A stretch of 64,000 nt of DNA from Nitrospirota bacterium. Its GTDB lineage: Bacteria > Nitrospirota > UBA9217. A program made the translations under genes and the position numbers. Numbering within the stretch: the stretch's first letter is position 1; each line of letters starts with the position of its first letter. This document shows, piece after piece, positions 8,465 to 11,299 of the stretch. The stretch is taken from contig CAWCKW010000012.1 of assembly GCA_963796285.1 (NCBI GenBank), positions 1,120,001 through 1,184,000 of the forward strand. Direction: 5' to 3'. A model generated the notes under the pieces. It did not search any database. It had not been told where the DNA came from and worked only from the letters and a program-made list of their open reading frames with translations.

Positions 8465-10711
<2,247 letters not shown>

Positions 10712-11035
10712 CTATGAATCGACGAGACGGAAACCGGCGTTCTTCCATCCTTCGACACCGCCGCCCAGAACCTTGGCATTCGAAAATCCCTGCGCCAGAT
10801 ATTCCGCTGCCCGACCGGCAGCGCTAGCTTCTTTCTGTCAGGCTCAGTAGAAGATGATTTCCTGGTCCCTGGACAGGGAGGGCAAACGCGCCTTGAAGTC
10901 CTGCAGCGAGATCGCGGACTCAAGGTGCATTTTCCGGAACTTCTCCACGTCCTCGTACGCGCATACAAGAAGGGCCTCTCCGGACGTAACCTTCTTGCGC
11001 GCCTCTTCTGCCGATATTCTTATTGGCTCGGTCAT
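10712..11035 (-). CDS. Rhodanese-like selenoprotein with two in-frame UGA codons (IIFY-U-A-U)
   Basis: GGAGG then ATG 11035; TAC TGA GCC TGA CAG (TGA at 10844-10846 and 10838-10840); continues QKEASAAGRAAEYLAQGFSNAKVLGGGVEGWKNAG (rhodanese C-terminal signature) to TAG 10712. Confidence 0.82.
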
Positions 11036-11299
11036 GGGGGGCCTCCCATCGGTGGATAGGCTGTGAATGAATAAAGGATAGCACAGACCAGAGGGAGATG
11101 CATGGGGTGTCATAGAATCATCAGTTAAGCGAACCGGCGGAGATTTGTAAATTCGAGGATCAATAGGGGAAAGACGCGATCTGGTTGAGGGTAGAACATC
11201 AAACGGGCTAAGGGCAAAAGTCCAACAGTATGGACCTGACCCCAGGATGTTCCCCCCCGTTAAACTCTTGAGGTATAATTTTAACGAAGGAGGTTGGAC

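Follow-up and report, generated by a model that had tools for sequence, protein, structure and literature searches.

The window analysed here, a stretch of 64,000 nucleotides from a Nitrospirota bacterium (contig CAWCKW010000012.1), carries on its minus strand a gene for a small rhodanese-like protein whose reading frame contains two TGA codons with a single sense codon between them. This gene is intact and codes for a stand-alone protein with the rhodanese fold, one of a family that we refer to by its motif as 'IIFY-C/U-x-U', U being the residue encoded by UGA. From comparison with homologous loci, we consider it probable that both UGA codons are recoded by SelB through one shared selenocysteine insertion sequence (SECIS), and that the product most likely contains the triplet selenocysteine (Sec)-Ala-Sec. 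The gene is a new member of a two-UGA rhodanese form that has been in print since 2007; the form is real, and it is not new.

An intact rhodanese gene with two in-frame UGA codons

Translated with TGA as U, the coding sequence comprises 107 codons (10715..11035, minus strand), beginning with ATG at 11035-11033 and ending with a TAG stop codon at 10714-10712. A preliminary description of this DNA had drawn attention to the stretch TAC TGA GCC TGA CAG and to a C-terminal half, including LGGGVEGW, that stays in frame, and we found that this holds: the stretch lies at 10849-10835 in the rhodanese active-site region, with the first TGA (codon 64) at 10846-10844, the second (codon 66) at 10840-10838 and GCC between both, and the frame is otherwise without a stop codon. 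This part of the 107-residue product reads ...IIFY-U-A-U-QKEASAAGRAA.... The Pfam profile Rhodanese (PF00581) matches residues 9-100 over profile positions 2-102 of 102 (E 5.9e-10; 39.9 bits, the gathering cut-off being 22.2). The gene therefore has the features that define the UxU form, namely a rhodanese domain and two UGA codons, one codon apart, in the active-site region.

Both TGAs are unchanged in contigs from two further public runs that belong to different studies, although these are contigs and not raw reads, and one of the runs may be the source sample of the assembly. The first contig (X1) covers 10650-10969 with three differing letters and the second (X2) covers 10518-11068 with six, all of them away from the TGAs. 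At 10844-10846, where the preliminary description had suggested checking the reads, the contigs of both runs carry TGA without any difference. A third run (X3) gave nearly no coverage over the rhodanese gene.

A scan with one genome per species gave 120 confirmed relatives, the best 80 of which make up the set of homologous loci used below. Codon 66 is TGA in all 80 loci, and codon 64 is TGA in 21, TGC in 41 and TGT in 18, so that 21 of the 80 are UxU and 59 are CxU. The UxU loci are distributed over Nitrospirota, Syntrophales, Desulfobulbaceae and other Thermodesulfobacteriota, and a double TGA that recurs in this many homologous loci goes beyond chance. Close homologues (E < 1e-30) were present in five genomes, the window's own included, when this genome and 40 related ones were searched. 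Two more species of the same genus (G003 and G001) have the double TGA at protein identities of 70% and 68%, and two species from other genera of the same family have TGC-GCC-TGA. The preliminary description had reasoned that TGC or TGT at the first position in all close homologues would indicate an ordinary CxU protein; the two species of the same genus, each with two TGAs, show otherwise. A search of the own genome found no second close copy of the family and no CxU back-up.

We next consider how often codon 64 has changed and whether the codons behind it are maintained. On a quick maximum-likelihood tree of the 80 loci and the window gene, with codons 64 and 66 masked, the Cys/TGA state at codon 64 changes about 13 times, which is a rough figure because the tree has 105 columns only and many open forks; at least three of these changes are forced by well-supported branches. 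Fourteen UxU-UxU pairs were compared over the 36 codons past the second UGA, and the ratio of non-synonymous to synonymous divergence (dN/dS) was 0.03-0.27 at a dS of 0.39-1.58 in 13 of them, dS being saturated in the remaining pair. The upstream part of the UxU pairs gave 0.05-0.33, and nine CxU pairs that served as a control gave 0.06-0.43. Independent UxU loci with synonymous divergence, which the preliminary description had proposed to look for, are thus on record. The low dN/dS downstream of both UGAs indicates that the downstream half is translated in UxU lineages, and we conclude from these alignments that the UxU clades are old (dS 0.4-1.6) and that their downstream halves are under purifying selection.

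An explanation that dispenses with recoding of the first TGA is that this codon is a true stop, arising either from a recent lesion that made a pseudogene of a CxU gene or from a sequencing or assembly error. One substitution is enough to turn TGC into TGA; of the best 120 database proteins, 45 stop immediately ahead of position 64, gene callers having cut them at 63 residues; the first UGA lies further from its hairpin than is usual in the own genome (see below); and the relative G018 has an apparent frameshift near the 5' end of its gene. We nevertheless give this explanation hardly any credence, since the double TGA recurs in the 21 loci across several phyla as well as in the contigs of the two further runs, UxU clades that have diverged to a dS of about 1.6 keep the downstream half open at the dN/dS values given above, and the own genome has no other copy of the family. 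A TGC>TGA lesion was one of the two options that the preliminary description left standing; it is excluded, as far as comparing sequences can do this, by the UxU loci, the purifying selection and the lack of a CxU back-up. The frameshifted gene of G018 (locus L013; G018:C14, ~347290-347340) is itself a CxU copy in which an apparent one-base insertion splits the frame, which makes it a pseudogene or else points to an error of assembly.

The family fares badly in public annotation. Some of the public gene calls (P0001-P0013, P0033) are cut at 63 or 65 residues, one 63-residue database fragment is named 'ArsR family transcriptional regulator', and other calls read TGA as W (CxW), presumably under a code in which TGA is Trp. 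Because gene calling reduces the family to a fragment of 63 residues, a correct annotation has to read through both UGAs.

An AlphaFold2 model made with 79 aligned homologues is a plain single-domain rhodanese (predicted local distance difference test, pLDDT, 90.2; predicted template modelling score, pTM, 0.84). It has a strand at residues 59-63, a loop at 64-69 and a helix at 70-81, and this layout places both UGA-encoded residues within the active-site loop. Foldseek gave 53 PDB matches at E<=0.001, and among the 39 matches listed all are rhodanese-domain proteins or sulfurtransferases apart from one integrative model of unjudged title. The best solved neighbours are 3TP9, BH2092 (3O3W/3NHV), YgaP and GlpE (1GMX, TMq 0.77), with a Foldseek probability of 1.00 for those listed. 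Judging from the states of the two codons, we infer that position 66 would be the essential chalcogen, a near-invariant selenocysteine, and that position 64 would be its partner, either Cys or a second UGA-encoded residue; the other forms seen among the best 120 database proteins are CxC (3), CxS (10) and CxL (1), and the CxC proteins, being homologues with Cys at position 66, speak for Sec decoding. A further cysteine, Cys25 (LLVCAY; window 10963-10961), is at least 90% conserved in the 79 homologues and takes the place of the Asp that ends the first strand in ordinary rhodaneses. It may lie close to both UGA-encoded residues.

A single SECIS-type hairpin, probably shared by two UGA codons

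One SECIS-type hairpin follows the TGAs on the minus strand (10805..10823), beginning 14 nt past the second TGA and 20 nt past the first, exactly as had been described. Its stem has 7 bp here, of which a 5-bp core is conserved, and is formed by 10823-10817 (5' arm) and 10811-10805 (3' arm), which enclose the 5-nt loop GGTCG (10816-10812). The apical loop starts 21 nt past the second UGA and 27 nt past the first. It can be seen from the homologous loci that this hairpin is maintained as a structure. The 78 nt around the motif align without gaps in 80 sequences, and RNAalifold returned the one hairpin as their single common structure. Over the 7-pair stem 84.1% of cells pair, compared with 22-53% in controls in which the 3' partners were slid, and none of 500 shuffles reached the observed covariation score. 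The five core pairs are kept in 74-80 of the 80 sequences, and pair 39-51, which joins two codon third positions, shows 15 compensatory double changes. Within the loop, G44 never varies and the conservation of T45 and C46 is at least 90%, the conserved U sitting at a fourfold-degenerate site of a Gly codon; the loop is GGTCG in 38 loci and GGTCA in 25, with GGTC present in 65 of the 80. We conclude that the hairpin, by its conserved and covarying structure, has the make-up of a bacterial SECIS of the fdhF type.

A SECIS peculiar to the UxU genes was considered and ruled out, as the hairpin has the same position and a similar stability in UxU and CxU (-11.2 vs -10.5 kcal/mol). The distance from UGA to apical loop in bacterial SECIS elements ranges over 16-37 nt in the accessible part of the relevant paper (PMC10778597), and both loop distances of the window gene fall inside this range. 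The second option of the preliminary description, one SECIS shared by the two codons, is accordingly the one that the data favour, with a single conserved, covarying hairpin at a fixed distance in 80/80 sequences.

Decoding might then proceed as follows. A ribosome at the first UGA would have the loop 27 nt ahead of it and a ribosome at the second would have it 21 nt ahead; as the hairpin would still be outside the ribosome in both cases, two successive SelB-tRNA complexes could be recruited. With codon 66 already under the control of the SECIS, one TGY>TGA mutation at codon 64 would fall inside the working window and be read at once, and such instant read-through of TGA64 would explain the many Cys/UGA flips at this codon. 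The insertion of two Sec residues, its efficiency and its chemistry are all matters that we infer. A carrier function at the Sec-x-Sec site is plausible on chemical grounds, in that Sec-Ala-Sec could form a diselenide or hold sulfur or selenium as a perselenide.

It could also be that the hairpin acts on the second UGA only and that the first needs either another element, for example an alternative fold or an upstream sequence, or another factor. Single-sequence folds (10842-10812; also L034, L037, L039 and L044) favour a pairing of the second UGA and the CC after it with the GGUCR loop, which makes alternative structures possible, and the accessible text of a paper on hydrogenases discussed below (PMC13582414) leaves room for 'additional factors'. 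The pairing may, for its part, be an accident of coding U-P and G-R/Q. We regard separate signals as very unlikely, because RNAalifold gives one hairpin only for the 80 sequences, UxU and CxU genes align without gaps and have the hairpin at the same position and with the same stability, and the 3 nt between the UGAs leave no room for a second hairpin there.

Several observations weigh against recoding of both UGAs as Sec from the one hairpin. The loops of fdhA and of two other rhodanese genes in the own genome lie 18-21 nt past the UGA, so that the first UGA of the window gene, at 27 nt, exceeds the local spacing by 6 nt and may be recoded inefficiently. For selD, a hairpin possibly ~33 nt from the UGA is ambiguous. 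Reviews on Escherichia coli give a tight spacing of 11 nt between UGA and minimal hairpin (PMC8659212, accessible part). Rfam at gathering score matched no family anywhere in the window, and at E<=10 the region 10650-11100 gave a lone chance match to a long non-coding RNA; no Rfam family fits this SECIS, which is therefore without a match to an independent model. The assignment of roles to the two positions meets conflicting profile alignments, since that of GlpE sets its catalytic Cys65 on position 66, while the alignments of 6MXV, BH2092 and NoxA-3 set the catalytic Cys on position 64. Lastly, the selC*-type tRNAs of the genome, one or two in number, have anticodon UCA and discriminator U; according to published work (PMC5389517, PMC13582414), tRNAs of this type insert Cys at a SECIS-linked UGA, so that Cys may be what either codon receives.

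Selenocysteine machinery, selC*-type tRNAs and gene neighbourhood

The own genome (G000) encodes SelA (595.4 bits), SelB (369.6 bits) and SelD (350.1 bits), each over its cut-off, and its selD itself has one TGA. The canonical tRNA-Sec gene adjoins selAB outside the window (C12:134656-134754; Rfam 64 bits, discriminator G). A second Sec-like tRNA, of the selC* type, is encoded on the minus strand at C12:1201220-1201310, likewise outside the window. It is 91 nt long and scores 53.3 bits with the Rfam tRNA-Sec model, and it has an 8-bp acceptor stem, anticodon UCA, discriminator U (U73) and CCA. A near copy on the plus strand at C3:325141-325234 reaches 44.2 bits against the Rfam cut-off of 47 and has one acceptor-stem mismatch, with the same anticodon UCA and discriminator U. 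The UCA/U73 tRNA also occurs in seven related Nitrospirota genomes, with compensatory changes in the acceptor stem. In the accessible parts of the two papers concerned, selC* tRNA-Cys is defined by U73 together with a UCA or GCA anticodon (PMC5389517), and tRNA-ReC is described as Sec-like, at least 80 nt long, with anticodon UCA or GCA and discriminator U (PMC13582414). The tRNA at C12:1201220-1201310 has all of these sequence features of selC* tRNA-Cys, also called tRNA-ReC (Mukai et al. 2017). Both papers have such tRNAs put Cys at a SECIS-linked UGA, in the second through SelB, and the second reports, as far as its accessible text goes, that they are enriched in genomes with UXXU hydrogenases, where UGA would then possibly be read as Cys.

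The same could apply to the rhodanese gene. Both UGAs would again be recoded through SelB and the one SECIS, but the selC*-type tRNA-Cys(UCA) would supply Cys to one or both of them, perhaps depending on selenium supply, so that the product would be wholly or largely CxU, UxC or CxC and TGA64 would be a nearly silent spelling of Cys. We looked for an association by searching with the Rfam tRNA-Sec model in G000 and in 73 of the 77 genomes from which the loci come, four Geomonas genomes (L108-L111) being left out; the discriminator was read in 40 regions with Rfam matches of at least 88 nt, the weakest at ~40 bits, and some matches below 44 bits were left out. We found the UCA type in 6 of 22 UxU genomes, the own one included, and in 2 of 52 CxU genomes (Fisher p 0.007, with no correction for kinship), and this, together with its presence in the own genome and the seven related ones, favours Cys insertion. 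However, all eight genomes with the UCA type belong to one Nitrospirota clade, within which the figures are 6/8 UxU against 2/8 CxU (p 0.13), and any U73 type is found in 7/22 UxU and 8/52 CxU genomes (p 0.12). The CxU sister genomes L036 and L053 have the UCA tRNA, and the nearest UxU relative, L033, is without it. No U73 Sec-like tRNA was detected in 15 of the 22 UxU genomes, among them all three Syntrophales UxU clades, although these are metagenome-assembled genomes, in which the absence of a tRNA is not proven; a dependence of UxU on selC* was rejected on this count. No cysS* or selB* was found in G000 or beside the selC*-like tRNA genes, and the own genome has one canonical cysS (562.3 bits). 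Finally, the TGA at codon 66 in all 80 loci argues that selenium matters at this position. We therefore think Cys insertion unlikely, and keep to the reading that SelB delivers Sec at both codons.

The selC* tRNAs could have had a part in how the second UGA arose. In this proposal, which is speculative and which we hold to be possible but rather doubtful, the stretch that a single SECIS opens to decoding is at least 6 nt long, and lineages with selC* provide a stepping stone to a second Sec, from Cys(UGY) over UGA(Cys) to UGA(Sec). Were it true, any Cys codon in the window of decoding could turn into UGA by one mutation and still be read, the new UGA would first be read as Cys, and hence be nearly neutral, in lineages with a selC*-type tRNA-Cys(UCA), and this process would have left its natural record in the ~13 switches at codon 64; the UxU protein would then offer a natural system in which to test two successive deliveries by SelB from the same hairpin. 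Although the discovery is a modest one, the family offers, in compact form, a natural example of a SECIS that two UGA codons, 6 nt apart, would share. Its protein is small, soluble and single-domain, which makes it convenient for testing double SelB read-through, and it also suits the question of whether selC* tRNA-Cys competes with tRNA-Sec at such UGAs.

Long Sec-like tRNAs of another kind, whose anticodon is GCA and which carry discriminator U and CCA, were seen in eight genomes that have this rhodanese family, namely those behind L066, L052, L061, L039, L058, L098, L095 and L104 (tRNA records L122, L124, L127, L128, L134, L140, L141 and L142). The genome behind L052 has both the GCA type and the UCA type. 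In further genes of the own genome, all outside the window, a single in-frame TGA is followed by a hairpin; they comprise two rhodaneses, fdhA, two molybdopterin oxidoreductase-like genes and selD (C12:89384-89659, C12:90402-90683, C13:493794-495797, C12:1685222-1685959, C13:52156-52596 and C1:101902-102822). GGUC-type hairpins follow the UGA in fdhA and the two other rhodaneses, among others, and the selD gene is identical on C1 and C8.

The gene next to the two-UGA rhodanese gene is katG (8465-10660, minus strand), which in the list of open reading frames encodes a catalase-peroxidase of 731 aa and has AGGAG ahead of its ATG. It is co-oriented and begins 51 nt downstream of the rhodanese stop codon, the distance that had been given in the preliminary description. 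The adjacency is not conserved, however, since tblastn with KatG against all fetched loci gave a match at the window's own locus (L009) only, and we therefore ruled out katG as a functional partner. A metatranscriptome contig (X15; 9 differences) covers 10427-10839 and so joins the interior of katG, by way of the intergenic region, to the second TGA. It weakly suggests a transcript common to katG and the rhodanese gene, coming as it does from one RNA library and perhaps from DNA carry-over. Nor did the neighbours of the homologous genes point to a conserved operon partner: all-against-all BLAST gave clusters of five at most, and a Pfam scan of the 67 co-oriented neighbours within 250 nt, from 154 immediate ones, gave no recurrent family. 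What was seen is a loose scatter of redox and stress proteins, comprising OsmC, Pirin, a ferritin-like protein, DoxX (twice), FMN_red and a flavin reductase. The rhodanese gene, its neighbours being so diverse, has no regular companion, and nothing about its function can be read from the context.

Comparison with known systems

A full-text literature search on UxU selenocysteine gave the 2007 report treated at the end of this section as the one relevant paper. In the literature searched, which did not extend to supplements and subscription papers, we found proposals made in silico only; no experiment on a bacterial SECIS with two UGAs came up.

Single-domain rhodaneses such as GlpE, BH2092 and YgaP have the same fold as the window protein, which differs from the GlpE type in having UGA-encoded residues for the catalytic Cys, and a conserved Cys25 and Tyr27 for the D/R usual in the first strand. 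The closest parallel for the hairpin is the SECIS of E. coli fdhF, described in the accessible part of a review (PMC8659212) as an in-frame hairpin right after the UGA with a GGUC-type loop in which G and U are conserved. The window SECIS is likewise an in-frame hairpin after UGA with a GGUC-type loop; however, it probably serves two UGA codons, its loop is further out than G23/U24 of E. coli, by 3 nt for the second UGA and by 9 nt for the first, and no bulged U was identified in it.

That CxU rhodanese selenoproteins are known, as stated in the preliminary description, agrees with the catalogues, whose accessible entries list a CxU rhodanese with one Sec (form 3, or COG0607 form 2; NF041203; PMC13188914, PMC9312934). 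NF041203 (rhodanese_LYCAU) is likewise a single rhodanese domain with C-x-U at the end of the central strand, and it was the best NCBIfam match for all four members tested (best E 4.2e-16). The window protein, however, scores 48.4 bits against a cut-off of 115 and matches profile positions 53-121 of 126 only, so that we file it as a relative of that family and not as a member; it also has two UGAs where the listed entry has one Sec. TsoB, a rhodanese/DsbD fusion-like selenoprotein with the motif UxxxxU (NF045694; PMC13188914, accessible part), resembles the window protein in having a rhodanese domain and two Sec in the active-site loop, but is a fusion protein with its Sec residues five apart. 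NF045694 gave a weak match in three of the four members (best E 5.2e-05), far under family level. The catalogue entries available to us also include UxxU Prx-like proteins.

A single SECIS for a pair of UGAs has been proposed for the UXXU Group 4 [NiFeSe] hydrogenases (Front Microbiol 2026, PMC13582414). As presented in the accessible text, a close pair of UGAs replaces a Cys pair in these enzymes, as in the window gene, and one downstream SECIS is common to the UXXU and CXXU forms. They co-occur, moreover, with selC*/tRNA-ReC, and the genome of the window carries a selC*-type tRNA too. The hydrogenases differ from the rhodanese in protein family, in the spacing of the UGAs (9 nt vs 6 nt) and in that the residues concerned are nickel ligands.

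The preliminary description had called the recoding unusual. Its pair of UGAs and its shared hairpin stand, but the recoding is less unusual than was thought, since the UxU form was published in 2007: for a rhodanese-related sulfurtransferase, Zhang and Gladyshev (2007, NAR 35:4952, PMC1976440) wrote that 'a second Sec evolved ... resulting in a UxU motif'. According to the accessible text, their form was predicted from the sequences of metagenome contigs of anaerobic delta-proteobacterial symbionts of a worm (Olavius), and a single sentence with one figure is devoted to it. It is, like the product of the window gene, a rhodanese-domain selenoprotein with UxU; it comes from symbiont metagenomes and not from a Nitrospirota-type genome, and the subfamilies can be matched by description only. 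The homologue counts, the repeated switching between Cys and UGA at codon 64 and the covariation of the SECIS come from the present analysis and go beyond the accessible 2007 text.

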